Shown: positions 2,264 through 57,340, numbered from the stretch's first letter. The stretch is DNA of 64,000 bases from an uncultured Candidatus Saccharibacteria bacterium (GCA_964525295.1 CAZGEO010000001.1:312662-376661); one strand, 5' to 3'. Numbers and translations: made by a program. Notes: generated by a model not told the origin, from the letters alone.

Positions 2264-2677
2264 CTATTTCTTTGATTTTTTGCTATCAGATTCCTCTTTG
2301 GTAACTGTTCGCTTAACTTTGATTTTTGGAGCTGCAATATCTTTAACGTCTTTTCTCAAAATCAAGTAGCGTAAGATTTCAGGGTGTCGGTTCATGAGTT
2401 TCTTGATATTGTCCATTTCAGCTGACAATGCTTCGAATTGATACATGACGTAATAACCTTCGACATGTGTGTCGATTTCATAAGCTAAATATCGCTTTCC
2501 CCAAATGTCACGAACGGTCACAGTTCCTTTTGCATCGTTGATAATTTGTTCAACTCTTGCATCTGCTTCGTTGCGAACTTTATCTGGTAAAAATGGCTTG
2601 AAAACTACGACCATTTCGTAAGGCACTGGTTTTCGGGCCACGGTTAAGATTGTTTCTTCTGTTTTTCTCTTTGCCAT
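2264..2677 (-). CDS. rpsF: 30S ribosomal protein S6.
   Basis: The S6 core VPYEMVVVFKPFLPDKV...GKRYLAYEI...YYVMYQFEA is present. I chose the internal ATG at 2677 (MAKRK...) because an extended -10 box sits 7 nt upstream of it. The track ORF extends to 2740. Confidence 0.8.
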   Translation of the reverse strand: MAKRKTEETILTVARKPVPYEMVVVFKPFLPDKVRNEADARVEQIINDAKGTVTVRDIWGKRYLAYEIDTHVEGYYVMYQFEALSAEMDNIKKLMNRHPEILRYLILRKDVKDIAAPKIKVKRTVTKEESDSKKSKK

Positions 2678-2684
2678 AGTGGGA

Positions 2685-2693
2685 ATTATAACA
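2685..2693 (-). promoter_or_regulatory. Extended -10 promoter element TGTTATAAT, 7 nt upstream of the rpsF ATG. Implies a leaderless transcript.
   Basis: Minus-strand sequence is TGTTATAATTCCCACTATG. The same TGnTATAATTCCaCC-ATG arrangement is seen at rpsT. Confidence 0.45.
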
Positions 2694-2742
2694 CAGTTAC
2701 CGTAAAGCGCAACGGTATTTGAGCCATCATTCAAGGTCAAAA

Positions 2743-3183
2743 TTACTTAACTACCCTAAATGAGATTGTCTTATTTAAAAAATATTGCATTACCGCAACT
2801 ATTACAATTGAAATAATTTTGACCGGTAATAATTCTATTTTTAAAAGATCATGCAATAACCATATAATTATACTGCTGACAAAAATTCCAAAAAGACCGA
2901 CAAGATAAAACGATAATAATCTAACCAACAAGTTATCTGTTTGCCTAAAATTGAGATAAGCATTGAGGAAAAAATTCGTAACAATACCAAGAGACATTGA
3001 TATTGCGTTAACAATAACGACGTAAGCCGTATAAGGAATGCCAAAAGGTGCAGATACGTTATTGATTACCAAAAACAAGAAAACTGTATCAACTGTTAAC
3101 CCACAAAAACCGATTAAAATATAATTAAAAAATGAACTATGCTTATTGTAATATTCAACCAACTTCTCAATAAACGGTGACAT
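2743..3183 (-). CDS. GtrA-family small polytopic membrane protein. Putative flippase or accessory partner for the adjacent GT2.
   Basis: 146 aa with four predicted TM helices. It ends 2 nt before the upstream GT2 gene, in a GtrA/GtrB-like pairing. Confidence 0.6.
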   Translation of the reverse strand: MSPFIEKLVEYYNKHSSFFNYILIGFCGLTVDTVFLFLVINNVSAPFGIPYTAYVVIVNAISMSLGIVTNFFLNAYLNFRQTDNLLVRLLSFYLVGLFGIFVSSIIIWLLHDLLKIELLPVKIISIVIVAVMQYFLNKTISFRVVK

Positions 3184-3184
3184 A

Positions 3185-3919
3185 TTATGATTTTGACAAA
3201 TTGTAGTGAATGATTTCGCGTAGCGCCTTGAAACCGTCTTGAAAAGCTTTCATGTGTTTTCCTTCAGCCATAGTTCTAGGATAATACTTAATCGGCAATT
3301 GCGCAAAGCGTAATCCCTTCTGTTTTGAAAATTTTGCGGTAATTTCGGGTTCAAAACCAAAGTTCGAGGTTGCAGTTAACGAAGCTGCTAGATTGCGAAA
3401 CATATCACCTTTTGCCATCTTATAACAAACTTCCATATCTCGAGGCCACATACCTGAGCGCAAACCTGTAAATATCGCAGAAATGAAACTGAGAAGCGTA
3501 TTCCCTAGCCAATTTTGGATGTAAACAACTTCATTTTTAATGCCAAATCGATTACCGTAAACGACATCTAATTGTTCAGCCACAATTTTCTGATATAAAC
3601 GTACTAAATCGGCTGGTTCATATTCTAGGTCAGCATCTTGAATTACCACATATTCCCCTTTTGTTGCGAGAATACCTTTTTTGACTGCTTGCGACTTCCC
3701 TGCTGCGGTATTGTTAGTCAATATGGTGATATTTTCGTATTTTCTTGATAAGAATTCAGCAACTTGCGCAGTTGAATCGGTTGAGCCATCATTTACAATA
3801 ATGATCTCAAAGGTCACTACATCCCCTAAAGAAGCAACTACCTTCTCTACGATCGATTGCAATGTTTTCTCCTCATTTTTTGCCGGAATAACCAACGATA
3901 AATTCATACCAGGTATCAT
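3185..3919 (-). CDS. Family 2 glycosyltransferase (DPM1/GtrB-like polyprenol-phosphate sugar transferase).
   Basis: LSLVIPAKNEE...IIIVNDGSTDST...VVIQDADLEYEP shows the GT-A fold with a DxD motif. Confidence 0.75.
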   Translation of the reverse strand: MIPGMNLSLVIPAKNEEKTLQSIVEKVVASLGDVVTFEIIIVNDGSTDSTAQVAEFLSRKYENITILTNNTAAGKSQAVKKGILATKGEYVVIQDADLEYEPADLVRLYQKIVAEQLDVVYGNRFGIKNEVVYIQNWLGNTLLSFISAIFTGLRSGMWPRDMEVCYKMAKGDMFRNLAASLTATSNFGFEPEITAKFSKQKGLRFAQLPIKYYPRTMAEGKHMKAFQDGFKALREIIHYNLSKS

Positions 3920-3951
3920 AACACATATAATGAAAAAGAGTTATCTAAAAG

Positions 3952-4887
3952 ATGATAGAATTGCGCATGCTAAAAACTCCAATTTTATTCACCATATTTA
4001 ATCGTGAAGATACTGCATCTCAGGTTTTCGCCCAAATAAAGGCGATTAAACCGCAAAAACTATACATTGCATCAGATGGCCCAAGACAAAATAAAGAAAA
4101 GGAAGCTGAAATTGTTGAGAAGATTCGCAAAAACATACTCTCAGCAATTGATTGGAAATGTGAAGTAAAAACTCTATTTAGGGAAACTAATCTCGGTTGC
4201 AAAAATGCTCTCAGTTCTGGCATAACATGGTTTTTTGAGCAGGAAGAAGATGGCATCATACTCGAAGATGATTGCGTACCACACCCTACTTTCTTTGAAT
4301 ACGCAGAAAAAATGCTTGAGAAATACAGAAATGATGATCGAATTATGGTTATTTCAGGCACCAACTACCTACCAAACAATACAGAAACTGCAGACGAGGC
4401 ATACTTCATTCGCTATTTTGCCATCTGGGGTTGGGCTACCTGGCGTCGAGCTTGGCAAAAATATGACATCTCTATGAAGGATTGGCCCGCACAGAAAAAA
4501 TCGAAAATTCTCTACAAATATTTCGAAGAACCGCAAATTGCAAGACATTTTGAATCACTGTTCGATGATCTTTATCAAAATAATAACAACACCTGGGATA
4601 TACAATGGGTACATACCTGCTTATTCAATAACGCACTAGCGGTAGTCCCAAGCAAGAATTTAATATCTAATGTAGGTACCACTTCTGGAACTCACACAAC
4701 AACCAAAAAATCATGGGTTAGCGAAATGCCTACGTACTCACTTAATTGTGATCAACTGCAAATTCCAGACAGAGTATTTCCTGATGTTCAAAAAGAAACT
4801 GAATTATTCACACGAATTGGGGCAATAAAACCATTCGGGCGATTGCGATTAACGCTCCGTACAATTAAAAATGCTATCATACGTTAA
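3952..4887 (+). CDS. Putative glycosyltransferase, GT13/GNT-I-like nucleotide-diphospho-sugar transferase.
   Basis: ILEDDCVPHPTFFEYAEKM resembles the GnT-I EDD motif (xEDDLEVAPDFFEYF). The N-terminal TIFNREDT is also GnT-I-like. The gene is embedded in the glycosyltransferase cluster. Confidence 0.5.
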   Translation: MIELRMLKTPILFTIFNREDTASQVFAQIKAIKPQKLYIASDGPRQNKEKEAEIVEKIRKNILSAIDWKCEVKTLFRETNLGCKNALSSGITWFFEQEEDGIILEDDCVPHPTFFEYAEKMLEKYRNDDRIMVISGTNYLPNNTETADEAYFIRYFAIWGWATWRRAWQKYDISMKDWPAQKKSKILYKYFEEPQIARHFESLFDDLYQNNNNTWDIQWVHTCLFNNALAVVPSKNLISNVGTTSGTHTTTKKSWVSEMPTYSLNCDQLQIPDRVFPDVQKETELFTRIGAIKPFGRLRLTLRTIKNAIIR

Positions 4888-5640: not shown

Positions 5641-6954
5641 ACGCACGCCATATCTAGTAAAAATTCCTTGCCCTTTAATCGCACCTAACAACAAACTACC
5701 GATGAAATCAGGTTCATAAAGCAACATACTGAAAATCATTGATACTGTTAAAGAACCCAAATTAACCCAAGCTGCTCCTACTGCTCCGAACATCGGAATT
5801 ACTAATAAATTACCGAGCGTATTTGTTACCGCGTTGACGAGACTTACCCAAAGAATTTTATTTTGCTTATCTTCAATAATGACGAAGTTATTCCAGATAG
5901 AACCCCAGAAAATTGGAATATTACTCCAGGCATAGATTCTAAGAATTTCACCCGCCAATTGATACTTTTCTCCAAATACCACAGCTATCAACCAAGGGGC
6001 AAATAACGATAGACCAATTGTTACGATGAAGCCCAACCAGAAAACAGTCGTTGTTATCAACTGCATGCGATATTTGTACAATTCTTCTGATTCTTTCTTT
6101 GCTTGTACAACACTCGGAAAAGCAGAATTCGAGAGCGCACTCGATAAAACGATTGCGATTTCTGCAATCATTACAGCAGTGGCGTATTGTCCTAAGGCCG
6201 CTTTACTAAGGATTAGCAAACCTAGTAAAAGCTGATCAACGCGAGCTCCAAGCATCGCAATAAATGAATTGGTAAGAAGTGGAATACCACTTTTTAGATT
6301 GTCAAAAATATATTTCGTATCAATTTGCCATGCGACTTTTCTTTCACGAATTCGTAGATAAAAAGGCCATAACAAACCCCACCCTAACGCAAGCTCCAAC
6401 CCACCCAAAGCAACAAAGACCAATACATTTTGCATTTGATATATAGCTACGAGTTTCGCAAGAGCAATTACTATCGCAGCAATATTACGTGCAATTACAG
6501 GATATTTTGACTGCACTCTCGACTGAAACCAGTCATCAAAGATGATAAATGAGTTAAAAACATATGCTATCGATAAAATACCAACCGCCATTGTTTGAAT
6601 ACTCCATCCTGATTGCAGGTAAGCAATCAACAAAGCCATTGCCGAAGTTATTGATGCTGCGGCAAATTTTAATGAAAAAGCGGTACCAATGATTTTTTCT
6701 TCTGGAACTTCTTTTTTAGCAAAATCTCGAATGAGAAGTTGATCGATACCGAGCGAACCAATTACCGAAAAAAAGGAAATGAATACAAAGCCATAGTTAT
6801 ATATTCCCCAATTTTCATCACCCAAGTAACGTGCGACTTGCACACCAACTAATAACCCAACAAGCTTCTTTACAAACACATCTAAAAGCAACCAAATTGT
6901 ATTTTTGCCTGCAGAAAAAAGTGTGGCACGCTGTTTTAAACTTTCTAGAGCCAT
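5599..6954 (-). CDS. Wzx-type polysaccharide flippase (MOP superfamily, polysaccharide biosynthesis protein).
   Basis: About 450 aa with roughly 12-14 TM helices. The typical N-terminus MALESLKQRATLFSAGKN is present, so I chose the internal ATG at 6954. The 3' end overlaps the convergent GT2 gene by 42 bp. Confidence 0.7.
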   Translation of the reverse strand: MALESLKQRATLFSAGKNTIWLLLDVFVKKLVGLLVGVQVARYLGDENWGIYNYGFVFISFFSVIGSLGIDQLLIRDFAKKEVPEEKIIGTAFSLKFAAASITSAMALLIAYLQSGWSIQTMAVGILSIAYVFNSFIIFDDWFQSRVQSKYPVIARNIAAIVIALAKLVAIYQMQNVLVFVALGGLELALGWGLLWPFYLRIRERKVAWQIDTKYIFDNLKSGIPLLTNSFIAMLGARVDQLLLGLLILSKAALGQYATAVMIAEIAIVLSSALSNSAFPSVVQAKKESEELYKYRMQLITTTVFWLGFIVTIGLSLFAPWLIAVVFGEKYQLAGEILRIYAWSNIPIFWGSIWNNFVIIEDKQNKILWVSLVNAVTNTLGNLLVIPMFGAVGAAWVNLGSLTVSMIFSMLLYEPDFIGSLLLGAIKGQGIFTRYGVRLALIEEFLQKRKV

Positions 6955-6986
6955 AGGTGATTGTAGCACGCGTGGTACAATCAGTA

Positions 6987-8162
6987 ATGAAACGATTTTT
7001 AACGTTTTTGAAAAATGAATATCGCCATTGGAAAGCATATTTCAAATATCGACCACTCTTCAATGTCAATAAAACTGCCCATGCCCAAAATGCACTTGTC
7101 TCATACATAACTGAGCCATTTGTAAATGCGCCTTCTGTCGCACACACAAACTTGCAAGAAGCTCTGGCTTTAGCAAAAATTTTGGATGAATTGAAGTTTA
7201 ATGTAGATGTTATGCAATATGACGACAATTCATTAATTGATTATTCCAAATATTCTTTCATTATTGGATTTGGCGAACCATTAATTAATTCGTATTACGC
7301 ACCAGAAACTCCCAAAAATTGCATTCGTGTTTTTTATGGAACTGGAATGCACATTAATGACCAAAATCATGCGACATTAAAACGGGTAAAAGAAGTTTTT
7401 GAAAAAACTGGAAAATGGTTTCCCTCTGCGGGCAGAATCGTAGATAAAGCCTGGACGATTCAAACAACACTTGTCGACGCTATCATAACGTTCGGTGAAG
7501 ATAAACTAATTGAAGGTTATCGAAAATTTTATTCAGGCCCAATATTGAAAATTCCGGTGACTTCCTACGAAACATTCTCCGGAGATGATTTCATCGACAC
7601 AAAAGACTTCTCGCAAGCAAAAAATCACTTTTACTTTCAAGGTGGAACTCAGGGCAGTATTCACCGTAGTCTCGACCTCTTGTTAGAGTATTTCGACAAG
7701 CATCCAGCAAAACATCTTCATATCGCAACTTCTTTTAAGATGGAAAAAGGATTTGAAGAGGCATATCATGAACAACTCTATAATCGTCCAAATATTCATA
7801 CCTATGGGTTTATTTCGCACAAATCAGAAACTGCACGCAACATTCTCAATACCTGCGCATTCTTAATTTTCCCTTCTTGCTCTGAAGGTACTTCTACTTC
7901 AGTTATAAACCTTATGCGAGGAGGGCTAATTCCACTTGTCACAGAGCAAACTGGATTACCTAAAAAGGACTTCATTATTTCAATTGATGAAATCTCTGCA
8001 AAAGGCATTGAAAATACAATAGCACAAACAGAAACGTTGACTGCGACAGAGCTCAAAAAGATGAGTAAAGAAAGTTACACTTTCACAAGAGCAACATACA
8101 CACTTGAAGAGCACACAAAGAAAATGAAAGAAGCTATTAAGACAGTCTTACAACATGAATAA
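6987..8162 (+). CDS. Glycosyltransferase, probably GT4 (group 1).
   Basis: IFPSCSEGTSTSVINLMRGGLIPLVTEQTG resembles the GT-B EX7E/nucleotide-binding region. The start is ambiguous between GTG at 6957 and ATG at 6987. Confidence 0.5.
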   Translation: MKRFLTFLKNEYRHWKAYFKYRPLFNVNKTAHAQNALVSYITEPFVNAPSVAHTNLQEALALAKILDELKFNVDVMQYDDNSLIDYSKYSFIIGFGEPLINSYYAPETPKNCIRVFYGTGMHINDQNHATLKRVKEVFEKTGKWFPSAGRIVDKAWTIQTTLVDAIITFGEDKLIEGYRKFYSGPILKIPVTSYETFSGDDFIDTKDFSQAKNHFYFQGGTQGSIHRSLDLLLEYFDKHPAKHLHIATSFKMEKGFEEAYHEQLYNRPNIHTYGFISHKSETARNILNTCAFLIFPSCSEGTSTSVINLMRGGLIPLVTEQTGLPKKDFIISIDEISAKGIENTIAQTETLTATELKKMSKESYTFTRATYTLEEHTKKMKEAIKTVLQHE

Positions 8163-12223: not shown

Positions 12224-13204
12224 TTAGTACTCTTTTTTTGTTATTCTCTTTAATAAGTTTACCAATTTTCTTGGTAAAAACGAATAAAGCAACGCAGCAA
12301 AAACTTTGTAGTTAAACCCATATTTTTTCAAATACTGCGTTGATTCAATTCTAACTGCAGAAGAATGATTGGCACGAAGTGCAGTTCGAATTGTTTGCCA
12401 CGACAATTCAGCCGGCGATAATGATTCTGCAAGTTTCTTAAAAATTTTTGGATCAAATGAATCGTACGAATCACTCCCCTTTTCTATACGTTCCTGATAC
12501 CAAATCCGAATTAACTCTAGCATTTGTTTTTGAATTTCCCAAGAATATTCCGTAAAAGTTACTGAACTCAATGAAGTTCGATACTTGACTAAAGGTTCTG
12601 CAATATTGGCTAAAAGATAGCCATCGGTGACGAGTCGTAAAAACAAATCGTAATCTTCACCATAAAATATTTTTTCACGATAATGAATGCTGTCAACATT
12701 CCTTGACATAATGGTGGAGTGCGTGAACTGGTTACTCTTCGGTAACGTCTCTACTATTTCGCGGTGCGTCAACTTATCTTGACATACTTCTCGCTGTACT
12801 GCGCCATCCCAATCTATGCGAATTATTCCGCTTCCTACAAGGAAAATATCAGGGTGGGAAACTAAAAACTTAACTTGCTTTTCAAGCCGCGTAGGTAAAG
12901 CGATATCATCGGCATCAAGAACAGCGACAAATTCCCCCCGTGCTTCACGCAAGCCCTTGTTACGATTGGCAGCTATACCGAGTTGTTTCTCATTTGAAAA
13001 TAGCCTAATTCTATCATCGAGAGCAGAAAGGCGTTGTGCAATCTGTAATGAATTGTCAGTCGATGGCTCAATCAAAAGTAACAATTCCCAATTCTCATAC
13101 GTTTGTAACAAAATTGAATTGACCGCCTCTTCGAGAGTTGCTGCTGCATTGTAAGCTGGCATAATCACCGAAACCAAAGGATTCTCAGCAGCTTTATTAC
13201 TCAT
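12224..13204 (-). CDS. Family 2 glycosyltransferase.
   Basis: VSVIMPAYNAAATLEEAVNSILLQTYENWELLLLIEPSTDNS...VAVLDADDIA shows GT2 with a DxD motif. Confidence 0.75.
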   Translation of the reverse strand: MSNKAAENPLVSVIMPAYNAAATLEEAVNSILLQTYENWELLLLIEPSTDNSLQIAQRLSALDDRIRLFSNEKQLGIAANRNKGLREARGEFVAVLDADDIALPTRLEKQVKFLVSHPDIFLVGSGIIRIDWDGAVQREVCQDKLTHREIVETLPKSNQFTHSTIMSRNVDSIHYREKIFYGEDYDLFLRLVTDGYLLANIAEPLVKYRTSLSSVTFTEYSWEIQKQMLELIRIWYQERIEKGSDSYDSFDPKIFKKLAESLSPAELSWQTIRTALRANHSSAVRIESTQYLKKYGFNYKVFAALLYSFLPRKLVNLLKRITKKEY

Positions 13205-13223
13205 ATGCCCATTATAGCATTCT

Positions 13224-13718
13224 ATGCTACACTACCCTATGCCAAAAAAGGTTCATTTACTCCTCATTGCGTCAGCAGGTGGTCACCTCAAAGAGCTCTA
13301 CAACTTAAAAGGATTTTGGCAGAATTATGAAAGAACTTGGGTTACTTTTCCAACTGGCAATGCTCCTGATCAGTTGAAAGATGAAAAAAACGTAATATTT
13401 GCAGCCTGGCCCACACAATACCCAAATCTTCCAAACAATATTCGCAATTCTTTTCAAGCCCTTTTCATGATTCTTAGCGGAAAATACACGCATATTATCA
13501 CGACAGGTGCAGGAGTTGGCGTTCCCTTTATCTGGATGGGATGGCTATTTTCACCAATTTTAAGGACAAAAACTATTTTTATTGACTCGCTGACACGAAC
13601 AAACAATATGTCTTTTGCAATGAAACTTGTTTACTTTTTTTCTCATATTAGATTGACACAATGGGAACATTTAACAAAGAAATACCCAAGATTAACCTAT
13701 AAAGGCCGTGTAATATGA
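13224..13718 (+). CDS. Alg14-like membrane-anchoring subunit of a split UDP-sugar glycosyltransferase (EpsF/PssD/Cps14F-like).
   Basis: VHLLLIASAGGHLKEL is a glycine-rich Alg14/GT28 N-terminal-domain motif. The gene is paired with the Alg13-like gene through an overlapping ATGA junction. Confidence 0.6.
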   Translation: MLHYPMPKKVHLLLIASAGGHLKELYNLKGFWQNYERTWVTFPTGNAPDQLKDEKNVIFAAWPTQYPNLPNNIRNSFQALFMILSGKYTHIITTGAGVGVPFIWMGWLFSPILRTKTIFIDSLTRTNNMSFAMKLVYFFSHIRLTQWEHLTKKYPRLTYKGRVI

Positions 13719-14191: not shown

Positions 14192-14492
14192 CCTTTTTAG
14201 TGTATTCCCCCAACTTTAAATTGTAAGCGAGACGGCCGTCAGTATGTTTGTGCAATGTCGCAAGAATATTGCCACAGTTTCTGCATGACAAAGAAGCAGT
14301 TGCATCGTCATTTGCAATTTTATAAACAAGTTCTTGTGGGCCATGTATTCTATTCAAGTAACACCGATGAAGCCCCCCAATGCCATCTTTCTGATAGAGA
14401 AAAGCATATTCGCCACAGCGAAAACAGCTTATCTCCAAGATCTTCGCTTTTCCTCCTCGAACTGCAAAGTACTTATCTTTTTTTAATTTCAT
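14175..14492 (-). CDS. Hypothetical small zinc-ribbon protein (two CxxC pairs).
   Basis: The 105-aa ORF contains CFRCGE...CRNCGN. A TATACT -10 box lies 9 nt upstream of its ATG. It overlaps the 3' end of the Alg13-like gene by 17 bp. Confidence 0.35.
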   Translation of the reverse strand: MKLKKDKYFAVRGGKAKILEISCFRCGEYAFLYQKDGIGGLHRCYLNRIHGPQELVYKIANDDATASLSCRNCGNILATLHKHTDGRLAYNLKLGEYTKKVKSVL

Positions 14493-14544
14493 GGAAGGTT
14501 GAGTATAGCACGATACAAAGAGGCCTGTCCTCTTTATTACTGAA

Positions 14545-15684
14545 CTAACTCACGAGAACATTAATATAGTCCCCATCTTGCATTACATACGTCTTCCCTA
14601 CAGTTTGCAGCTTTCCGGCTGCTTTCACTTCATTAAAGCCACCTAATTCAAGAATATCTTTAACGTTCGCGATTTGTGCTCGCACAAATCGCTCTGCAAT
14701 ACTCGTATGAATGCACGCAGCTGCATCAACCGCAGTATCACCGTTCGTTAAGAACCAGCTGCGAGTGTCTTTCTCATTGCCAACGTAAAAATTGATGTAA
14801 TTCAATTTCTCTTTAGCTAATTCGATCAAGGTCTGCACATCGCAAAAATATGAAAGATCTTTACGCATCTCTTCGACTTCAGCTTCAGTAAAACTTTGAA
14901 TTTCTGATAAGAATCTTGAATCAATCAAGCCGATCTTCCCCATTGCATCAGACCCATACGTGTGCGCCATATATTCTGCCACCTCTTTCTTCCAACCTTC
15001 GATCATTTCGAGATACTTTGCATCTCCCATATCCATATACGAAACATTCAGCACCACTAAAAAGGGCTTTGAAGAAAGAAGGAATAAATCATGTAATATC
15101 TCTTGCACCACTTCAACAGATTTCTGCTCTGGTTCATTTCCAAATCGATATGCGCTTTTACCTTCATTCAAATACGTTAACAATTTTTGTAAAGCCTGTT
15201 GTTGAATCTTTGCCTTTTCGTCTTTTCCTGAGCGAACATCTTTATCAAGCGCATGAATTTTTTTCTCGACAGTTTCTACGTCGCGAAGCATAAGCTCCAT
15301 AACTACATCTTCTAGATCGCGTTTGGGGTCTAATCTATCGTATACATGGGTTACATTTTTATCTGGAAATGCGCGAAGCAGATACATGATTAAGTCGACT
15401 TCACGGATATGTGACAAGAACTGATTTCCCAACCCTTCACCTTTTGATGCACCCTTTACTAAACCTGCAATGTCAACGAATTGGATAACTGCCGGAAAAA
15501 CCTCGTTCGACTGGAATAACGCTGCAAGCTTTTTTATTCGCTCGTCATGATATTCAACAATTCCAACGTTTTTATCTATCGTACAAAATGGAAAATTTTC
15601 TGCAGGAACTGCAAGTTTTGTAATAACATTAAAAAGCGTTGATTTTCCAACATTAGGAAGCCCGACAATACCGATTGATTTCAT
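14545..15684 (-). CDS. ychF: Ribosome-binding ATPase YchF (Obg-family GTPase).
   Basis: MKSIGIVGLPNVGKSTLFN is the P-loop, and the C-terminal TGS-like region ends YVMQDGDYINVLVS. Confidence 0.85.
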   Translation of the reverse strand: MKSIGIVGLPNVGKSTLFNVITKLAVPAENFPFCTIDKNVGIVEYHDERIKKLAALFQSNEVFPAVIQFVDIAGLVKGASKGEGLGNQFLSHIREVDLIMYLLRAFPDKNVTHVYDRLDPKRDLEDVVMELMLRDVETVEKKIHALDKDVRSGKDEKAKIQQQALQKLLTYLNEGKSAYRFGNEPEQKSVEVVQEILHDLFLLSSKPFLVVLNVSYMDMGDAKYLEMIEGWKKEVAEYMAHTYGSDAMGKIGLIDSRFLSEIQSFTEAEVEEMRKDLSYFCDVQTLIELAKEKLNYINFYVGNEKDTRSWFLTNGDTAVDAAACIHTSIAERFVRAQIANVKDILELGGFNEVKAAGKLQTVGKTYVMQDGDYINVLVS

Positions 15685-15698
15685 AGTGAATTATAGCA

Positions 15699-16565
15699 TT
15701 AATCTTTGTATGGCGAATATGAAGTATTGTCAAAATCCTTGTCTGGCGGGACCAAATAACTTGAACGCAATAATCCAGCAACACGATTTGCTATATGTAA
15801 TCTAACATTCTCACTCGCTGGTGATATTTGCACGCTAGTACCGAAAGCACGGTTGTTACGAATATTTCTTGCCGAACCAATAGATGATGATTTTGCTGAA
15901 TAATAATCCTCTAGGTATTGAATAGAATCTTCATTTACATGAGAGTACCAATCTCTCCATACATTTTTTTCTGCCAAAATCACAGGAAATTGAATAACCT
16001 CCTGTTTTTTACTAATTTGAACTTTTCCTGCCAACGAAACCGCAATAAGTGAACGTTCTGGCCCCCAATCATTCGTCTTTGAAATAGCGATTACATCTAA
16101 AATTGCAACAGGAATAAACTTTTCACCAACTTTTAGTAACTCATACCCAAGAACTTTTATCGAAGTATTACAATTATGTTTATTGCCGTCAGTAACGTAT
16201 CTATAAGCGAATTCATCACCTTCTTTACTAAAAATTCCGCTTGATTCAATGCCACGATGTAGCCATTTTGGTTGCGTTTTTTCAATCTCTGAGAATAACT
16301 TATCCATTACTGCTCGAAAAGCATTACCAAAAGGTTCTTCTGACTTCTTACTTACTTCTAACCAATCTATATAAGCGTAATCTTCACCAGAAAAATCCAG
16401 CGAAACTCTGTATGCTCCGTTTTTATCAGTTTGCCAGGTTAACGAGACAATATTTTTTTCACCTACTGAAGTACTATATACATTCCCACCCTTGCCTTTT
16501 GATTCTTTAACCTGAATCCCATCATTATTAATCGGCCACTGCTCTGAACTAGTTTTTCTCGCCAT
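15699..16565 (-). CDS. Hypothetical protein.
   Basis: 288-aa ORF, co-directional and tightly packed between ychF and the isomerase gene. I recognise no motif. Confidence 0.5.
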   Translation of the reverse strand: MARKTSSEQWPINNDGIQVKESKGKGGNVYSTSVGEKNIVSLTWQTDKNGAYRVSLDFSGEDYAYIDWLEVSKKSEEPFGNAFRAVMDKLFSEIEKTQPKWLHRGIESSGIFSKEGDEFAYRYVTDGNKHNCNTSIKVLGYELLKVGEKFIPVAILDVIAISKTNDWGPERSLIAVSLAGKVQISKKQEVIQFPVILAEKNVWRDWYSHVNEDSIQYLEDYYSAKSSSIGSARNIRNNRAFGTSVQISPASENVRLHIANRVAGLLRSSYLVPPDKDFDNTSYSPYKD

Positions 16566-16623
16566 GCATAATTATACCCCATAATACAACACTAATACCT
16601 CTTTGCGAACTCCTAATTGACCA

Positions 16624-20524: not shown

Positions 20525-20553
20525 TTGAAAAGAATTCTTAAAAATGTTAAAAT
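20525..20553 (+). promoter_or_regulatory. Sigma70-like promoter: TTGAAA, 17-bp spacer, TAAAAT. The -10 box ends 6 nt before the ATG at 20560.
   Basis: ATTGAAAagaattcttaaaaatgtTAAAATccggtgATG. The geometry implies a leaderless femAB-family mRNA. Confidence 0.45.
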
Positions 20554-20556
20554 CCG

Positions 20557-26048: not shown

Positions 26049-26053
26049 TTGTC

Positions 26054-42176: not shown

Positions 42177-42244
42177 GATTTAGTATACACTTTTACTATG
42201 TTTGCAACAATAGCGTCAAAAGATATGATTTAACAAGATTTTCT

Positions 42245-42661: not shown

Positions 42662-42700
42662 TCACAATTTTAACACAAAAGCTTTTTCCTGTTTACTTTC

Positions 42701-43228
42701 ATGAATTCTGCCCTTATAATACGCATTATGAACTCGGATATACAAAAAAAATTAGAGACTTTTGTCTCACAGATTGTTAAAGATCTTGGATTTACTCCAG
42801 AATCAATTACTGTAACTGGCGAGGAAACAGCCGAAAAAACTGACATTCAAGTCATCGTCAAAGGTACTGATCTTGAATTGCTCATTGGTTATCATGGCAA
42901 GAATTTACAAGCTCTCCATCACCTAACTGTCGCTACACTCAAGAGAATGTTCCCTCCAGAAACCAGAGTGTCATTATTCTTAGATGTTGGTGATTATTTC
43001 GAGAAACAGAATGATAAAATTCGTCAGCAGGTTACTCAGGCAGTTGAAGAAGTTAAACTCCTTGATGAAGCATACGAGTTTCCACCAATGCCACCTCGTT
43101 TGCGTAGGGTTGTACACTTAGAAGCGGAAAAGCATACCGACGTGAAAACCGAAAGTAAAGGTGAAGGTATGAATCGCCGAGTAGTTATTTACCCAAAAAA
43201 TGCACTCGAAACTACACCAACTGCGTAA
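42701..43228 (+). CDS. Jag/KhpB-like RNA-binding protein with a KH domain and an R3H domain.
   Basis: IGYHGKNLQALHHL is a KH-like GxxG region. The C-terminal RRVVHLEAEKHTDVKTESKGEGMNRRVVIYPK is R3H-like. Confidence 0.55.
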   Translation: MNSALIIRIMNSDIQKKLETFVSQIVKDLGFTPESITVTGEETAEKTDIQVIVKGTDLELLIGYHGKNLQALHHLTVATLKRMFPPETRVSLFLDVGDYFEKQNDKIRQQVTQAVEEVKLLDEAYEFPPMPPRLRRVVHLEAEKHTDVKTESKGEGMNRRVVIYPKNALETTPTA

Positions 43229-44450: not shown

Positions 44451-46630
44451 CACTGAGTAAACAATTCGCCAGAAGTTTGACAAATCCACATATTTTGCCA
44501 GATTTCTGTGTTTATTGAATTGGTTGATTCTGAAATTGTATCTGCTGAACAGTCAATCTTAAAATCATCGAGTGGTAAAATGTAGTGTCTTTTGAAGTAA
44601 TTTCTTATCATTTGGTTCAAAGATACAGGTTTGGCATTTTTCGCAACAGGAGCTTCAGTATTAGCGCCAGCATAAGCATCGCTTAACTTAATGTTCATTA
44701 AGGTTGGGACGTATTTCTCAGGAATATCTACTTTTTCTACACAAAGAGAAGGATTAAAAGTTGAATCACAATTTCTGAATACTGCGGGAATAAACGCTGG
44801 AGCAACCAATTTCAAAAATGCCAAGAGTTCATTATTTGGCTTATAATCATTAAATGCAACAGCACTAACTCTAGTCGGAATCGCTAATGCTCCTTGATTC
44901 CAATATGTTTCTCTTTTCCAATACGTTGTCAACGACTTAAATCCATCTTCATTGACGCCGAGTGGTTTACTCAAAGATCTTTGTTTTGCAATTGTGTTTT
45001 GTAAGTATTCTGCACAGGTGGCTGTCGCCCGACCAGAGGCCAAAACAACCTGCTCTACTGTTGCTTGATCAAGCACGGAAGGGCCTCTTGTAATGCCACC
45101 CTGAAATGAATCACCTGCGCGATTAAATGCATATGATACAGCAGTATCTCCTTTTTGAACTGCTTTTGCGTATTCTTGCAAGTCAGGGCCAGAAAGATAA
45201 AGACCTTCCACCTCGGCACTTGCCGAGAGACTAAAGCTTCGGCAATTAGATTGCGATGCCACAAGATGACACATAGAAGGATTATTCGAACTGCAATATG
45301 CTGTATTAGTGCTTCTTGTCTTCGGGTTGAAACTTAAAAATGATGCTTTATCTGGGCTACTATATAATTTCTCATCAACTTTCCAAAGTCCACCGGTAAC
45401 AGCGCTTAATATTGTTTCACGTGAAGTTTCCATTTGTTTTTTATCATCATCCTTTGGGACTGTTAATAGACTCCCTTCTTTTGCAGCAGTATCAGTTTTG
45501 CCTACGAATCCTGTTGAATATTGAGGTGCAGCAGCAAGCATATCGTAAAGCATAGTTATTGCAATCCCAATATTTTTCATCTTTCTATAATCTGCTTCCT
45601 CTTCAGGCTGCCACGCATATAATTGAAATAGCCTAGAGCCTGCGAATTGAATCGTACCAGACAAATCGAGTTTCTTTACCGCGAGTTCGCGCCCTTCAAA
45701 TTGATCTTCCTTAACATTGTCTGGGAGAATCAACTTGAATGTTACCGATTTTTCATCTTTATGACCTTTGAGGTACTCTTTCGAAAATACGTTAACATCA
45801 CCGATCCCTATACCTGGGGAGCGTGTACTACAGCGACCGACGATATAGTCAAGAACCGCTTTGCTTGCATTCGCCGCACCACCGCCGGCTTTACCGATTT
45901 GACCACTCCACATTTGATTGTAATCTTCAGTATCAGGATCACTAAATGCATCACATAATTCTTCAGCTCTCTCTGGAGATAGATTGTTAAACCAAACTGC
46001 AGAAACAGCTACATACAACTCATCATTCGTCATCTGACGCATTCCAGCAACGTCTGGTTCAGTTAAATATGGAGGTAAGACCAATGGCTTAACAATTAAT
46101 TGCGCAACTCCTTTATTTGTTTCGCTATTCGGTTCACATATTGAAAAAGTCTTAACTTCAGGCTTTACGGTAGAATTTGACGGTGTCGGAGGTTGATATT
46201 CATACTTCATATTTGCCGCAGCTGCAAGTTTCAACCCTTGACCATTTTTCTCACTGAGAATTTTATCCAGTCGTACTGAATCAGGAACTTGCTCAAGTAA
46301 TTTTCCATTAATCACGTGACCTACTGCTAGGCTACAATCGCCCGGAATCCCATTCGCAACGCATGTCGCCCCACCTTTAGATGTATTCGAGGTAGTCGTC
46401 GCAGCGAGCTTTACTGCGACTTGAGTCGCTTCATTGTCAATTAAAAGATTCTCAATAACTGGTTTATCAAACGCAAACTTTGGAGTTGTATTTTCTTGAG
46501 TAACAGTAGACGGAACAATAGAAGAAGGCTTAATTGTTGGTAAAATGTACGAATAAACAGAAAAGGTAAGTGATACAAATACCCCAATGAGTAAGACTCT
46601 ATTTAGTGTTCTTCTGGTACTCCTTCTCAT
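44444..46630 (-). CDS. Large secreted or anchored hypothetical protein (728 aa).
   Basis: An N-terminal TM anchor, then a long hydrophilic Cys-containing domain. No motif recognised. Confidence 0.55.
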   Translation of the reverse strand: MRRSTRRTLNRVLLIGVFVSLTFSVYSYILPTIKPSSIVPSTVTQENTTPKFAFDKPVIENLLIDNEATQVAVKLAATTTSNTSKGGATCVANGIPGDCSLAVGHVINGKLLEQVPDSVRLDKILSEKNGQGLKLAAAANMKYEYQPPTPSNSTVKPEVKTFSICEPNSETNKGVAQLIVKPLVLPPYLTEPDVAGMRQMTNDELYVAVSAVWFNNLSPERAEELCDAFSDPDTEDYNQMWSGQIGKAGGGAANASKAVLDYIVGRCSTRSPGIGIGDVNVFSKEYLKGHKDEKSVTFKLILPDNVKEDQFEGRELAVKKLDLSGTIQFAGSRLFQLYAWQPEEEADYRKMKNIGIAITMLYDMLAAAPQYSTGFVGKTDTAAKEGSLLTVPKDDDKKQMETSRETILSAVTGGLWKVDEKLYSSPDKASFLSFNPKTRSTNTAYCSSNNPSMCHLVASQSNCRSFSLSASAEVEGLYLSGPDLQEYAKAVQKGDTAVSYAFNRAGDSFQGGITRGPSVLDQATVEQVVLASGRATATCAEYLQNTIAKQRSLSKPLGVNEDGFKSLTTYWKRETYWNQGALAIPTRVSAVAFNDYKPNNELLAFLKLVAPAFIPAVFRNCDSTFNPSLCVEKVDIPEKYVPTLMNIKLSDAYAGANTEAPVAKNAKPVSLNQMIRNYFKRHYILPLDDFKIDCSADTISESTNSINTEIWQNMWICQTSGELFTQCQ

Positions 46631-46637
46631 GCACTAA

Positions 46638-46898
46638 TTATAGAGCATTGACGAGCTTTTGTACACGAGATTTTCTTCTTGCTGCGCTATTTGCGGTAAT
46701 AACATTTTCTTTTGCAGCTTTATCGAGCAATTTAGTCAAGAATGAAAATGACTTAACTGCATCTTCTTTTGCTTTATTCTTCACGGCCAATTTGGTTTTG
46801 TTCAACCATCGGGTGATTCGGTCTTTTACTCTACGGTTAGTATCGTAGCGGGCTTCAGTTTTTCTTACTGCTTTTTTTGCATTTCTCAGATTTGGCAT
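46638..46898 (-). CDS. rpsT: 30S ribosomal protein S20.
   Basis: MPNLRNAKKAVRKTEARYDTNRRVKDRITRWLNK... is a basic, alpha-helical S20 pattern. I chose the ATG at 46898, which has the extended -10 TGCTATAAT ending 6 nt upstream. Confidence 0.8.
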   Translation of the reverse strand: MPNLRNAKKAVRKTEARYDTNRRVKDRITRWLNKTKLAVKNKAKEDAVKSFSFLTKLLDKAAKENVITANSAARRKSRVQKLVNAL

Positions 46899-46904
46899 GG
46901 TGGA

Positions 46905-46913
46905 ATTATAGCA
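46905..46913 (-). promoter_or_regulatory. Extended -10 TGCTATAAT, 6 nt upstream of the rpsT ATG. Implies a leaderless transcript.
   Basis: Minus-strand sequence is GTGCTATAATTCCACCATG. Confidence 0.45.
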
Positions 46914-47013
46914 CAATATCAATCATGCGCAATAGTTCTAGCTTGCAATTGTTCTACGTACCTGTCGTATAAGCAATTACCTCACGCTTTTCGTAAACAT
47001 GGTACAATAACTC

Positions 47014-47133
47014 ATGGATTTAAATGTCAAAATCATGGCTATTATTGTTGCGATAGTTACCGTCATAATGACACTTATTCTCTTTTTGTTGAGCGTCATT
47101 TTTGGCGTTGATATTTCAAGAACATTCTTTTAA
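47014..47133 (+). CDS. Candidate 39-aa single-TM mini-protein, 3 nt upstream of cca.
   Basis: MDLNVKIMAIIVAIVTVIMTLILFLLSVIFGVDISRTFF. The TGGTACAAT extended -10 ends 5 nt before its ATG. Its stop codon lies 2 nt before the cca ATG. Confidence 0.25.
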   Translation: MDLNVKIMAIIVAIVTVIMTLILFLLSVIFGVDISRTFF

Positions 47134-55000: not shown

Positions 55001-55602
55001 TCCATATACTCTTCACTCGCCTTGTCAGAGGTATGACGCTGAATCTCAACAAAGAAATTACCTTTAAAGATTGAATCGTACTCTTCGACCAATTTCATCG
55101 CCTGTTGCATACCTTTTTCGGTGTCACCACGATTTTTCCAGAACGCACCCGGAACCTCACCTCCATAACATCCACTAAGGCCAATTAATCCTTCACTATG
55201 TTGCGCCAATAATTGTTTGTCGATTCTCGGTTTATAATAAAAACCTTCAGTATTTGCGATACTCACTAATTTCAGTAAATTTTTATATCCAGTAAAATCT
55301 TTTGCTAAGAGGGTTAAGTGATAATACAACTTGTCTTCGTCATCTCCTGCGCGAAAATTCCCTTCTTTCAAACGATAATCTTTAGAAATATATGTTTCGA
55401 CTCCGAAAATAGGTTTGAATTCATTCTCTTTTGCAACTTTTTGGAATTCGGCAACTCCGTGCATTACTCCGTGATCGGTAACTGCAACGGCAGGCATTCC
55501 CAATTCTTTAACTTTGTATCCTAATTCTTTCAGCTTGACTAAACCATCAAGCATTGAATATTCCGAGTGTAAATGTAAGTGAACAAAGGATTGGTCAGCC
55601 AT
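52024..55602 (-). CDS. dnaE: DNA polymerase III alpha subunit.
   Basis: N-terminal PHP domain (VHLHLHSEYSMLDG), the polymerase core, and an OB fold. 1192 aa. Confidence 0.9.
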   Translation of the reverse strand: MADQSFVHLHLHSEYSMLDGLVKLKELGYKVKELGMPAVAVTDHGVMHGVAEFQKVAKENEFKPIFGVETYISKDYRLKEGNFRAGDDEDKLYYHLTLLAKDFTGYKNLLKLVSIANTEGFYYKPRIDKQLLAQHSEGLIGLSGCYGGEVPGAFWKNRGDTEKGMQQAMKLVEEYDSIFKGNFFVEIQRHTSDKASEEYMDPLLRELAKRVNKPLVASGDVHYLLHEDAKIQDIFWAIHEGRTIYDPKHMKMHTDELYFKSAEEMYELFSDIPEAPANTLMIADMIEKYSIFFDRVQPKYLDVPEGETAETLLRKFTYEGAVARYGEITDEIRERLDYELKVINDKGYNDYFLIVSDYIKWAKSQGILVGPGRGSGAGSVVAYCNSITDIDPFWWGLQFERFLNPYRPSPPDFDIDFQDDRRGEVIKYIEHKYGHDNVSAICAIGRMDTKAAIRDVSRALAIPLDQADKVAKMIPVKRGKPMPVSEAMETMPEFRQFVESDPKLVEMVNAVKRIKKIARNVSVHACGYVITPDPISEYVPLRRAPQDTELVITQVEGAHLEDVGLMKYDFLGLRTLTIIKNVENAIFRQHGETIDWDKLGVEDKKSYVLFQKALTDGIFQFESQGMKKYLIDLVPTTILDICFMCAAYRPGPMGYIPDYIERKHGRKDIEYLHPDMKGLLGETMGYAIYQEQVMAIAVEMAGYSIGEADLLRRAMGKKKKEILDAEKPKFIDGMLKKGYTQELADQVFAYMLPFADYGFNKSHSACYAVVAYRTAYLKAHHPIEFVVGLMQADMGHTDKLENDLSQAVAMHVQVLPPQINQSNLEFSIEYHDDELEKHWLDDDFSEQLAKRKAKGEYHYIGSIRYGLKGIKGASQKALEALIEERGKGGEFQHLDDLISRVDLDRVDKKTLLLLAQAGAMNDWGERNALITLIPIIYDRHKAEIKKEVVEQMSLFSFGGSEENKQKMVQQTPLPVVEPASIMQILKWERDLFGIYLTSHPLHQYTDYFMSIGAKSLDEAIAELPAEEIFIGASISRMKKLNTKNGDMMAFLDLEDTTSTVSAVLFPRTYQVFAKLLLENPDALNEAFIFKGRIDKRLDKVSFVISNFELITPESTKTDRVVKNIKIRLHQNLAKDDLDALKAFIAANPGDVKLTFEVPAAQGFKLVAYKGGIAYSFDIKKTLRRFGDVSENN

Positions 55603-55622
55603 ATCGGGTCATACTACTTAAT

Positions 55623-57305
55623 TTACGCAAGAGTTTCAACATCTGCTCCTAATACTGAATCAAATGCGGATTCGAGAGGCGACTCTGCTGATTTTGCTTC
55701 AACCTTAACCGATTGAACCGCAGGGGCGACTACATTGTCGTCAATTTCTCGTGGGGCAGTTTTCTTAAATACCAACTCTTCTTTGCTAATAACACAAATA
55801 AACTGCAATGGCGAGTTATAGATTTTTTTTGCAGCGTTGAGTAAAACCATCTGATTTTTTGCATTCTCTAATTGCTTCTTATGAAAATCATAGGGAACTT
55901 TCAATTCAACTTTTGTAACCTGAACTTGCTGATCAAACTGCGCTGCGCTTGGGCTAGCTGCCATGATAAACGTATATAGTTGCTTATGTTCGAGCTGAAC
56001 AGCACGAATAAAAGCAGTCCAATCTGCTTGAATTTCATCTAATGAAAGATTTCGAGCCGGAACTTCTTTCGCTTTTTTCTTTACTTTCTTTTTTTTGACA
56101 ACCATTTTTTTCTCGGGATCTGTTGAAGTAGTTTCGATTTCAGAGGGTACTTGTTCGGCAACTGACGTTGATATTTTAGTTTCTGCTTTGATTACTGTGT
56201 CAGAAATTTCTGGCTTCGGTTTTGGCGTTACTTCTTGTTTTATAACGACAGGTAGATCACCTTTTTCTTGGACCATTTGCACCGTCGCAAGTTGTAATGG
56301 CAAGCGATGGTCAAATGCCAATCGTTGAGAACTATACGCATCTAGTAAAAGCTTTATTAGTTCGGTCAAGCGAGCACGAGATACAGCTACAACAGGCTCA
56401 CCTATCTCTTCAGCAACAGACTTATCGAGCAAACAATCGCGCAATGTAAGAATAACCGATTTAGTAAATTGTGGAATGTTTGTTCCACGCGAGAAAACCT
56501 CTTCTAAGGTTGATAATGCTTCAGAAACTTTCCCTTCTGCAATCGCCAGGATGTACGAATTGACAACGGTATCGTCGGGTAATCCGAGTGATTCCTGCAC
56601 TTCCTCAAAAGTTAATTCTTTATCTCCCGTCGCAGCTACAATTGTATCGAGCAATGAAACTGCATCTCTATAACTACCACCTGAGTGAGTCACTAGTAAA
56701 TCTAGCCCTTTCTTATCAACTTTCACTCCTTCGGATTCCATAATTTTTTTCAACGCCGTGTTTATGTCTCTTTGATTTCCCAAGCGAAACTCAAACTTTT
56801 CACAACGAGACATTATGGTTGCTGGAATTTTATGCGGTTCTGTTGTTGCCAAAATAAAGGTAACATATTCTGGTGGCTCTTCGAGTGTTTTGAGGAGCGC
56901 ATTAAAGGCCTCTTTCGTTAACATATGCACTTCATCAACGATATACACCTTCTGTTTACCCATTGCTGGATTATATTCAATTCTTTCTTTTAATTCGCGA
57001 ATTTCATCTATACCTCGATTAGAAGCTGCATCTATTTCAATCAAATCAATAAACTTACCTTCATCAAAAGCTTTGCAAGTATGACATTCACCACAAGGTT
57101 CACCATTTTTTAGCGCTTCACAGTTGAGTGCCCGAGCAAGAATTCGTGCTGTTGTTGTTTTACCTGTTCCTCTAGGACCTATAAAAAGATACGCATGCCC
57201 TGTTAAACCTTTGGATAATTCGGCTTTTAATAATCTTACTATGTGTGTTTGACCAACCAGTTCGGAAAATTCTTTAGGTCTATATGTGCTGTACAACGAT
57301 GGCAT
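55623..57305 (-). CDS. dnaX: DNA polymerase III gamma/tau subunit.
   Basis: AAA+ clamp-loader N-terminus with GPRGTGKTTTARILARALNCE and zinc-module cysteines. 560 aa. Confidence 0.9.
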   Translation of the reverse strand: MPSLYSTYRPKEFSELVGQTHIVRLLKAELSKGLTGHAYLFIGPRGTGKTTTARILARALNCEALKNGEPCGECHTCKAFDEGKFIDLIEIDAASNRGIDEIRELKERIEYNPAMGKQKVYIVDEVHMLTKEAFNALLKTLEEPPEYVTFILATTEPHKIPATIMSRCEKFEFRLGNQRDINTALKKIMESEGVKVDKKGLDLLVTHSGGSYRDAVSLLDTIVAATGDKELTFEEVQESLGLPDDTVVNSYILAIAEGKVSEALSTLEEVFSRGTNIPQFTKSVILTLRDCLLDKSVAEEIGEPVVAVSRARLTELIKLLLDAYSSQRLAFDHRLPLQLATVQMVQEKGDLPVVIKQEVTPKPKPEISDTVIKAETKISTSVAEQVPSEIETTSTDPEKKMVVKKKKVKKKAKEVPARNLSLDEIQADWTAFIRAVQLEHKQLYTFIMAASPSAAQFDQQVQVTKVELKVPYDFHKKQLENAKNQMVLLNAAKKIYNSPLQFICVISKEELVFKKTAPREIDDNVVAPAVQSVKVEAKSAESPLESAFDSVLGADVETLA

Positions 57306-57311
57306 GCGAAC

Positions 57312-57340
57312 AGTTTACGACACGAATAACCGTACATCAA
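57312..57340 (-). promoter_or_regulatory. Sigma70-like promoter: TTGATG, 17-bp spacer, TAAACT. It ends 6 nt upstream of the dnaX ATG.
   Basis: Minus-strand sequence is TTGATGtacggttattcgtgtcgTAAACTgttcgcATG. Confidence 0.4.

Follow-up and report, generated by a model that had tools for sequence, protein, structure and literature searches.

The question raised by the stretch of DNA studied here, 64,000 nucleotides (nt) from an uncultured bacterium (GCA_964525295.1 CAZGEO010000001.1:312662-376661; hereafter the window), is where its messenger RNAs begin, given that at many genes a promoter -10 hexamer stands only a few nucleotides before the start codon. A sequence-only reading had listed nine such genes and proposed that their transcripts start at or next to the AUG, i.e. 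that they are leaderless. All nine -10 sites were recovered in the sequence exactly at the coordinates given, with gaps of 5-9 nt (counted as the nt that separate the final T of the hexamer from the A of the ATG), and the same arrangement was found in about 20 additional genes (Table 1). We propose, with a probability of about 0.8, that such genes are transcribed from extended -10 promoters at the A of the ATG and that the 5'-terminal AUG is then translated independently of a Shine-Dalgarno (SD) sequence. On this basis, roughly half of the genes very probably have mRNAs that open with the start codon and lack a ribosome-binding leader, and leaderless mRNAs are likely to predominate among the promoter-proximal genes of the source genome. 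The nearest named relatives of the window RadA (30844-32136, minus strand) are Candidatus Dojkabacteria (WS6, candidate phyla radiation, CPR), which indicates that the window, with a GC content of 38%, comes from a Dojkabacteria genome.

The position of the box was analysed first on the gene calls of the public collection itself, which were made independently of our reading and span 1-20.4 kb and 29.4-64 kb of the window. Among these 51 starts, 19 have a TANNNT hexamer at a gap of 5-7 nt, compared with 140 of all 2035 ATGs in the window (6.9%; binomial p 4.6e-10), with ten boxes at gap 5 and eight at gap 6. In our own table of 59 genes, for which we chose best-guess starts, the number rises to 27. 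Between gaps 10 and 39 of the same upstream regions the mean is about 1.8 boxes per position (Poisson p 4e-6), and no excess of TANNNT appears at gaps 20-30 upstream of the window genes. The arrangement TGNTANNNT-N5-ATG occurs 11 times against 3.2 +/- 1.8 in dinucleotide shuffles, none of 100 shuffles reaching 11; with N6 there are seven matches against 3.3, and with N12, a control spacing, three against 3.3. Exact TATAAT hexamers number 57 on both strands, and 11 of them have an ATG 5-6 nt downstream.

An AT-rich genome could be expected to yield TATAAT-like hexamers near ATGs by chance, from which favourable cases were then picked; the two strands do contain about 2500 TANNNT, and about 2% of ATGs have one at any given gap. 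We therefore weighed this idea against a test free of gene calls, in which ATGs opening at least 80 codons were counted per distance downstream of TAYAMT. The window gave 9, 6 and 3 such ATGs at gaps 5, 6 and 7 over a background of about 0.4 per gap, and five Dojkabacteria loci (L085-L089, RadA identity 77-58%) gave 16, 11 and 4 over about 0.6. The negative controls were 80 loci (1.24 Mb) of other phyla, taken from the RadA alignment matches listed, among which there were no Dojkabacteria; they gave 3, 9 and 7 over about 8 per gap, with no peak at gaps 5-6, and the 31 low-GC loci among them gave 1, 3 and 1 over about 4.7. Since the low-GC controls show no peak, AT-richness does not explain the pattern. 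The enrichment is five- to ten-fold, is limited to gaps 5-7 and is significant with respect to all ATGs, flanking positions and dinucleotide shuffles alike; as the pattern is moreover conserved at orthologous genes, the chance reading is refuted and retains practically no credibility. The comparison of -10-to-start distances with an AT-rich background, a check put forward together with the original proposal, thus finds gaps 5-7 enriched beyond background in the window and in its relatives.

Conservation was followed in L085-L089 and in a more distant locus, L091, across which synteny is kept and RadA identity falls from 77% to 44%. At radA, clp, the AMP phosphorylase gene, femAB, jag, cysS and two unknown genes the box is kept at gap 5-9 within flanks that have diverged. 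The radA orthologues of L085-L089 have TATAAT at gap 5-6, the AMP phosphorylase orthologues TA(T/C)A(C/A)T at gap 5-9, the femAB orthologues of L085 and L086 TAAAAT at gap 6 and the jag orthologues TATAAT at gap 8-9; orthologues of the 284-amino-acid (aa) gene keep the box at gap 5-6, and those of the 184-aa gene share an identical cgtaTATACTtayyt sequence before the ATG. When 96 called genes of the relatives are pooled, 19, 12 and 6 boxes fall at gaps 5, 6 and 7 versus about 3.9 elsewhere, and a small second rise at 33-35 nt matches the leader of the S1 type described below. In L092, which carries the label "Patescibacteria group" only, five genes, radA among them, are preceded by boxes at gap 6-8 and lie beside genes with a clear SD; therefore the trait may extend beyond Dojkabacteria.

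The start codons were examined as well. It could be argued that starts were selected for their upstream box, by the reader or by a gene caller that learns motifs, and that the true starts lie elsewhere: for about half of the leaderless-class ATGs an earlier candidate start exists in the open reading frame (ORF), and at five genes our choices differ from those of the collection's caller. Yet at 13 genes the proposed ATG is the first possible start after an in-frame stop, and the test free of gene calls gives the same peak. Furthermore, the N-termini of orthologues, which had been suggested as a control, are conserved from the proposed Met. RadA homologues start MYVC..., and nearly all of the 18 sequences compared share M1, C4 and C7. 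For Clp, AMP phosphorylase (conserved N-terminus M(I/V)YL.PKKLD), CysRS, the beta-CASP RNase, Rho and two unknown proteins, the alignments with relatives likewise begin at the proposed Met, and in many cases an in-frame stop falls within the box or immediately ahead of it. Such a misplacement of the starts is consequently very improbable. Conversely, some automatic calls translate the promoter. For rpsF the collection calls TTG 2734 (156 aa), and the extension, ...NCVIIPT, is the translated promoter (2678-2734); ATG 2677 gives 137 aa, and in a relative at least 90% identical (P0122) rpsF is called from MAKRK, which corresponds to ATG 2677. The called start of the AMP phosphorylase in L088 (16343-16372) is placed ten codons before the conserved MIYLKPK, and translation from it runs across TGTTACAAT (...TCYNEES). 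The view that the box helps to choose start codons is borne out by these cases. Automatic calls that extend ORFs through the promoter also occur at L087 18462-18500.

The identity of the motif was read from the positions that had not been used for its selection. In 31 sites aligned on the hexamer these positions spell TGnTAtAAT: T and G at -15/-14 are present in 21 and 20 of the 31 sites, and hexamer positions 4 and 5 are A in 26 and 25, respectively. Exactly 17 bp upstream there is a weak -35, T-T-G/T-A-C/A-A (TTGaca), with an information content of at most 0.3 bit per position. The start codon is ATG in 30 of the 31 sites. From its sequence the motif is thus identified as a sigma-70 extended -10 promoter, with TG one base before the hexamer and a weak -35. 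Two further elements serve as calibrators. TATAAT precedes the S1 gene by 34 nt, and a TTGACA-17 promoter precedes a non-coding RNA between radA and rho; therefore the motif is a promoter in this lineage and not a signal of the start codon.

This bears on the alternative that TANNNT is a non-SD ribosome-binding or mRNA-unfolding signal within leadered mRNAs, as in group B of GeneMarkS-2, with the promoters further upstream. In its constant, short spacing to the start codon the box does resemble a ribosome-binding site, and SD sequences are so rare across the window that another initiation signal is needed. We know of no role of the TG extension in translation. The unselected positions, however, spell an extended -10 with a -35 at 17 bp, the same box stands 34 nt before S1 and upstream of the non-coding RNA, and the spacers of two back-to-back gene pairs (6955-6986, 32 nt; 13205-13238, 34 nt) contain two boxes as their sole promoter-like elements and are too short to house any other promoter. 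In addition, group B motifs precede all genes, operon-internal ones included (definition in PMC6028130), and cannot themselves act as promoters, whereas in the window tightly coupled genes are nearly devoid of the box. The TG extension, the near-lack of the box at coupled genes and the two calibrators (S1 and the non-coding RNA) all disfavour a translation signal of this kind, and we consider it unlikely.

The distribution over operon positions, counted with the best-guess starts of the 59 genes, points to promoters as well. A box at gap 5-7 precedes 16 of the 20 divergent genes, which supports the promoter reading since a divergent gene must own its promoter. It precedes eight of the 21 co-directional genes lying at least 30 nt downstream of their neighbour, two of the eight at 6-29 nt, and a single one (a weak TACGTT) of the ten that lie within 5 nt or overlap (Fisher p 0.011 for the first two classes together versus the last). 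The box had been described as a property of operon-first genes. This holds for the contrast between divergent and tightly coupled genes, but four boxes are located within the 3' end of a co-directional upstream gene (those of the genes starting at 46630, 15684, 1309 and 55602, which lie 7-20 nt downstream), so that "operon-first" is slightly too narrow.

That box-bearing genes lack an SD is confirmed. In the leaderless class no match of at least 5 nt to AAGGAGGTGA occurs between -4 and -20, and there are only three 4-mers, poorly spaced. The sequence-only reading went further and held that leadered and operon-internal genes carry strong SD sequences; this part goes too far as worded, since only 3-4 of about 27 remaining genes have one. 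A clear SD is limited to S1, the beta-CASP RNase gene (24518) and the alternative start ATG 63582, which is preceded by GGAGGGAAG; Alg13 has a weak AAGG, and in about 23 further non-leaderless genes no SD is present. The clean split between leaderless and strong-SD genes was therefore overstated. The S1 layout, TATAAT 34 nt upstream followed by AAGGAG, is the same in five relatives, and SD-bearing leadered genes are present in relatives as well (L089 13285-14723). The rplJ leader has no match to the L10 leader of Rfam.

With the motif, its position, its lineage specificity, its conservation and the start codons established by observation, initiation in this organism would proceed as follows. 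A sigma-70-type RNA polymerase would recognise the extended -10 (TGnTAtAAT), aided by the weak -35 (TTGaca, 17-bp spacer). The element ends 5-7 nt before the ATG, the normal distance between a -10 and the transcription start, and transcription would begin on the A of the ATG or at most 1-2 nt away from it. The resulting mRNA, with a 5'-terminal AUG and no SD, would be bound directly by the ribosome at its 5' AUG, a mode of binding already established in Actinobacteria, Deinococcus and E. coli for mRNAs of this type. Genes that abut or overlap a co-directional upstream gene have no box, nearly all of them lack an SD, and they would presumably be translated by termination-reinitiation coupling; as most internal genes start within the preceding gene or right at its stop, reinitiation is probably their usual route. 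In a minority of genes the start codon would follow a leader of about 28-110 nt, which contains an SD at S1 and none at rho and rplJ. The core of the proposal, -10 boxes set for transcription at or next to the AUG, is strongly supported by the statistics, the anatomy of the motif and the relatives, the start site itself being deduced.

It is also conceivable that the promoters are real and that most transcripts carry a leader of 1-5 nt, the polymerase starting closer to the -10 than that of E. coli. The modal gap of 5-6 is shorter than the 6-8 reported for Mycobacterium (PMC6028130), gaps of 7-9 occur too, and in N. lyticus, the one CPR species with such data, the distances between the -10 and the transcription start site are more variable (PMC12641261). 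At gap 5-6, however, the canonical start position, the 6th-7th nt past the box, coincides with the A of the ATG, and an earlier start would need an unusual discriminator of 2-4 nt; functionally, such mRNAs would still be without SD. We regard these very short leaders as improbable, and they form, together with the disfavoured translation signal, the main residual alternative to transcription from the A of the ATG.

Several observations weigh against leaderless transcription as we propose it, or temper it. Gaps 8-9 (the Zn-ribbon ORF, the ABC transporter gene, dnaE and the 582-aa gene) are not individually enriched for a bare TANNNT, and genes of this kind may have 5' untranslated regions (UTRs) of 1-3 nt; such a UTR is possible for the Zn-ribbon ORF in particular because its gap of 9 does not belong to the sharp peak at 5-7. 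The calls of the collection are not fully independent, since its gene caller may pick up an upstream motif of its own accord, a concern offset by the test free of gene calls and by N-terminal conservation; four starts of the 59-gene table (rpsF, 3907, 3967 and 6987) were picked with the motif in view. A generic -35/-10 scan of window positions 1-20000 gave 52 sites against 61 +/- 10 in shuffles, i.e. no enrichment, which makes the evidence from the -35 weak; this would fit promoters with a weak -35 and a reliance on the extended -10. Position -1, directly ahead of the ATG, is a pyrimidine in 74% of the leaderless class and 76% of the other genes, so that no start-site signature is seen there. 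The 3' end of 16S rRNA, with the anti-SD, lies outside the window. Finally, we infer the transcription start and the mode of ribosome recruitment, both of which go beyond the motif itself.

Table 1. Boxes, gaps and starts of leaderless-class genes and of leadered or SD-bearing comparators in the window.
Feature	Coordinates	Strand	Layout	Remarks
582-aa gene	1307..1326	-	TAGAAT, gap 8, ATG 1309	weaker case
rpsF	2675..2693	-	TGTTATAAT, gap 7, ATG 2677	
divergent pair	3905..3969	-/+	TGTTATGAT-7-ATG 3907 (-); TGATAGAAT-5-ATG 3967 (+)	starts chosen by us
back-to-back pair	6952..6989	-/+	TGCTACAAT-5-ATG 6954 (-); TGGTACAAT-5-ATG 6987 (+)	32-nt spacer
back-to-back pair	13202..13241	-/+	TGCTATAAT-6-ATG 13204 (-); TGCTACACT-5-ATG 13239 (+)	34-nt spacer
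Zn-ribbon ORF	14490..14533	-	TGCTATACT, gap 9, ATG 14492	box preceded by terminator-like hairpin AGAGGacaggCCTCTTTGT
ychF	15682..15698	-	TGCTATAAT, gap 5, ATG 15684	14 nt past co-directional upstream gene
288-aa gene	16563..16579	-	GGGTATAAT, gap 5, ATG 16565	
930-aa gene	20421..20437	-	TGCTAAAAT, gap 5, ATG 20423	
FemAB-family gene	20525..20562	+	TTGAAA-17-TGTTAAAAT (TAAAAT), gap 6, ATG 20560	
AMP phosphorylase	26046..26082	-	TTGAGA-17-TGCTATACT (TATACT), gap 5, ATG 26048	
220-aa gene	26903..26921	-	TATCAT, gap 7, ATG 26905	
366-aa gene	27402..27418	+	TATAAT, gap 5, ATG 27416	
162-aa gene	28572..28589	+	TGCTACAAT, gap 6, GTG 28587	only non-ATG start of the set
radA	32134..32151	-	TATAAT, gap 6, ATG 32136	
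clp ATPase	35309..35338	-	TGCTATAAT, gap 6, ATG 35311	CIRCE-like element overlaps
184-aa gene	35890..35906	+	TATACT, gap 5, ATG 35904	
284-aa gene	42174..42190	-	TATACT, gap 5, ATG 42176	
divergent pair	42659..42730	-/+	TGTTAAAAT-5-ATG 42661 (-); TATAAT-7-ATG 42728 (+)	plus-strand gene jag/khpB
728-aa gene	46628..46645	-	TATAAT, gap 6, ATG 46630	promoter in last codons of rpsT; 7 nt after rpsT stop
rpsT	46896..46913	-	TGCTATAAT, gap 6, ATG 46898	86 aa in independent call
mini-ORF before cca	47000..47133	+	TGGTACAAT, gap 5, ATG 47014	absent from the collection's gene calls
dnaE	55600..55619	-	TAGTAT, gap 8, ATG 55602	weaker case
dnaX	57303..57340	-	TTGATG-17-TAAACT, gap 6, ATG 57305	
gene 57417	57402..57419	+	TATTAT, gap 6, ATG 57417	
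divergent pair	59628..59686	-/+	TATTAT-6-ATG 59630 (-); TGCTAAAAT-9-ATG 59684 (+)	GIY-YIG (-); ABC transporter (+)
beta-CASP RNase	24516..24535	-	cAGGAGaatcta (AGGAG), ATG 24518	operon-internal with SD; 21 nt after AMP phosphorylase gene
rho	30353..30428	-	TGTGATATAAT 62 nt before ATG 30355	leader about 56 nt, no SD
rpsA (S1)	38671..38717	-	TATAAT, 34 nt including AAGGAGA (8 nt before ATG), ATG 38673	leadered
rplJ	62597..62723	-	TGCGGTATAAT 113 nt before ATG 62599	leader about 107 nt, no SD

Among the genes of the window are rpsF-ssb-rpsR, a large glycosyltransferase cluster, ychF, an IF-2B-family isomerase gene, the genes of AMP phosphorylase and a beta-CASP RNase, rho, radA, the Clp ATPase gene, rpsA (S1), cysS, jag/khpB, rpsT, cca, dnaA, dnaE, dnaX and rplJL. 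For the divergent pair 3907/3967 the collection calls ATG 3919 and ATG 3952 instead. The product of the 728-aa gene, used as a single query, found no relatives. No Rfam family reached the gathering threshold within the window and no tRNAs were found in it; a generic terminator scan of positions 1-20000 gave 22 hits against 14 +/- 4 in shuffles, a mild enrichment. Two enzymes of an archaeal-type AMP/nucleoside salvage, a candidate ribose-1,5-bisphosphate isomerase of the IF-2B family (16624-17571) and AMP phosphorylase (24540-26048), are encoded in the window, with no RuBisCO gene in it; this pair fits published Dojkabacteria metabolism.

Some of the promoters have features of their own. The extended -10 boxes of the genes at 6954 (-) and 6987 (+) form a near-palindrome, ATTGTAgCAcgcgTGgTACAAT (6960-6981), and the -35 region of each promoter lies within the first codons of the opposite gene; therefore two polymerases should exclude each other. 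At clp, a CIRCE-like operator, TTAGCAGTC-N9-AATTGCTAC (35312-35338, minus strand), overlaps the -10 box and reaches the ATG. Operator and box are common to L085-L089 and L091, and L091 has a perfect inverted repeat, TAGCAGTC-N9-GACTGCTA (about 11775-11805), upstream of an HSP20 gene. The overlap suggests HrcA-type repression acting directly on a leaderless clp promoter. The mini-ORF before cca (47014-47133, plus strand) encodes a hydrophobic peptide of 39 aa, MDLNVKIMAIIVAIVTVIMTLILFLLSVIFGVDISRTFF, resembling a single helix, and it ends 2 nt upstream of the cca ATG (47136), which is in another frame. It may specify a small membrane protein made from a leaderless mRNA, or act as an upstream ORF to which cca is coupled. 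In the dnaA-dnaE-dnaX cluster, two inverted 9-mers resembling DnaA boxes (TGTGGACAA and CTATCCACA; 51885-51903) are located 20-38 nt upstream of the dnaA ATG (51865), within the 158-nt dnaE-dnaA spacer (51866-52023), as a possible autoregulation site or part of oriC. TATGAT stands 12 nt before the dnaA ATG, from which a very short leader would follow. Promoters also turn over between relatives: the beta-CASP RNase gene is SD-led and operon-internal in the window (24518) and has its own TATAAT, at gap 5, in L091 (8044), while cysS has a near-consensus box, GATAAT, at gap 7 in the window (40166) and is stop/start-coupled to its upstream gene in L088 (2794) and L089 (4462).

The non-coding RNA between radA and rho (window 30506-30684, minus strand), which carries no annotation, is a conserved structured RNA of about 145 nt, also found in L085 (about 11450-11626), L086, L087, L088, L089 and L091. 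Its promoter is an invariant TTGACA-17-TAtAAT, and L088, L089 and L091 have tandem copies. The 5' part forms a long hairpin, CCCUUGG..GGAAGUUCU..CCAAAGG, after which come a middle hairpin, which varies, and a 3' hairpin, GGGAUCGG-UUUGGGGCAGUG-CCGAUCCC, which is invariant and has a U tract behind it. Over the seven genomes, 19 of 43 predicted pairs have compensatory changes. The spacer has no Rfam match at E<=1, and an assignment as signal recognition particle RNA, 6S RNA or transfer-messenger RNA was rejected, no model or motif being in support. The adjacent rho leader (30356-30428, minus strand) has a conserved hairpin, CCTCTCGC...GCAGAG, and a pyrimidine stretch, AUCCUCU, that resembles an anti-SD sequence.

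The phenomenon itself is textbook knowledge, its novelty here being confined to the host lineage and the near-absence of SD. In group C of GeneMarkS-2, reported mainly from Actinobacteria and Deinococcus-Thermus, a Pribnow box lies a few nt before the starts of first genes (PMC6028130). The Dojkabacteria pattern resembles that of M. tuberculosis, M. smegmatis, Streptomyces and Corynebacterium in the Pribnow box near first-gene starts without SD, in mRNAs that would begin with AUG, as the sequence predicts here, in the presence of leadered genes in the same genome and in the occurrence of leaderless small ORFs, here the mini-ORF of 39 aa. It differs from the Actinobacteria in its host, a low-GC (38%) CPR genome of roughly 0.66 Mb, in its modal gap (5-6 nt versus 6-8), in promoters that are mostly of the extended -10 (TGn) type and in starts that are almost only ATG, GTG starts being common in mycobacteria. 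SD sequences are rare in the remaining genes, whereas leadered and internal genes of group C are described with ribosome-binding sites (PMC6028130). The predicted leaderless share is high, the box preceding 80% of divergent genes and about half of the genes overall. In Deinococcus-Thermus a similarly large proportion of first genes is leaderless, with the -10 box adjoining the start codon; that group differs in phylum and GC content, and its starts were mapped experimentally rather than predicted from sequence; the figure quoted for Deinococcus deserti in PMC6028130 is 167 leaderless genes out of 262 with mapped transcription start sites. As in the archaeal leaderless type (group D), a majority of transcription units would be leaderless and internal genes use other signals, but the archaeal TATA box lies about 26 nt upstream, and here there is a bacterial -10 and no peak near 26. 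With the Bacteroidetes-type group B the organism shares a genome-wide rarity of SD.

For the CPR, one study with transcription start data for N. lyticus, a Saccharibacterium, notes variable distances from the -10 and does not discuss leaderless genes (PMC12641261). Full-text literature searches, incomplete in coverage, found no description of leaderless genes in CPR, Patescibacteria or Saccharibacteria, in agreement with the sequence-only reading, which had considered the pattern uncharacterised for this group. Because the pattern reaches L091, at 44% RadA identity, and L092, leaderless initiation could be the default throughout Dojkabacteria and in at least some other Patescibacteria/CPR lineages, with SD pairing in a few genes, a generalisation for and against which we see equal odds.

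If true, the CPR would constitute a third large bacterial clade of the group C type, one with reduced ribosomes, which bears on the idea of leaderless translation as ancestral, and N-termini would be systematically mis-annotated in CPR metagenome-assembled genomes. A box 5-7 nt before the true ATG corrects such N-termini, as in rpsF (156 versus 137 aa) and the AMP phosphorylase of L088; up to five of the 51 automatic calls in the window are likely affected. Patescibacteria are only now becoming genetically tractable, and the promoter consensus (TGnTAtAAT, with a predicted transcription start at the ATG) is usable for expression constructs in them. Leaderless initiation in Dojkabacteria would add a deep-branching, ribosome-reduced lineage to the few bacterial clades that translate most of their first genes from leaderless mRNAs.

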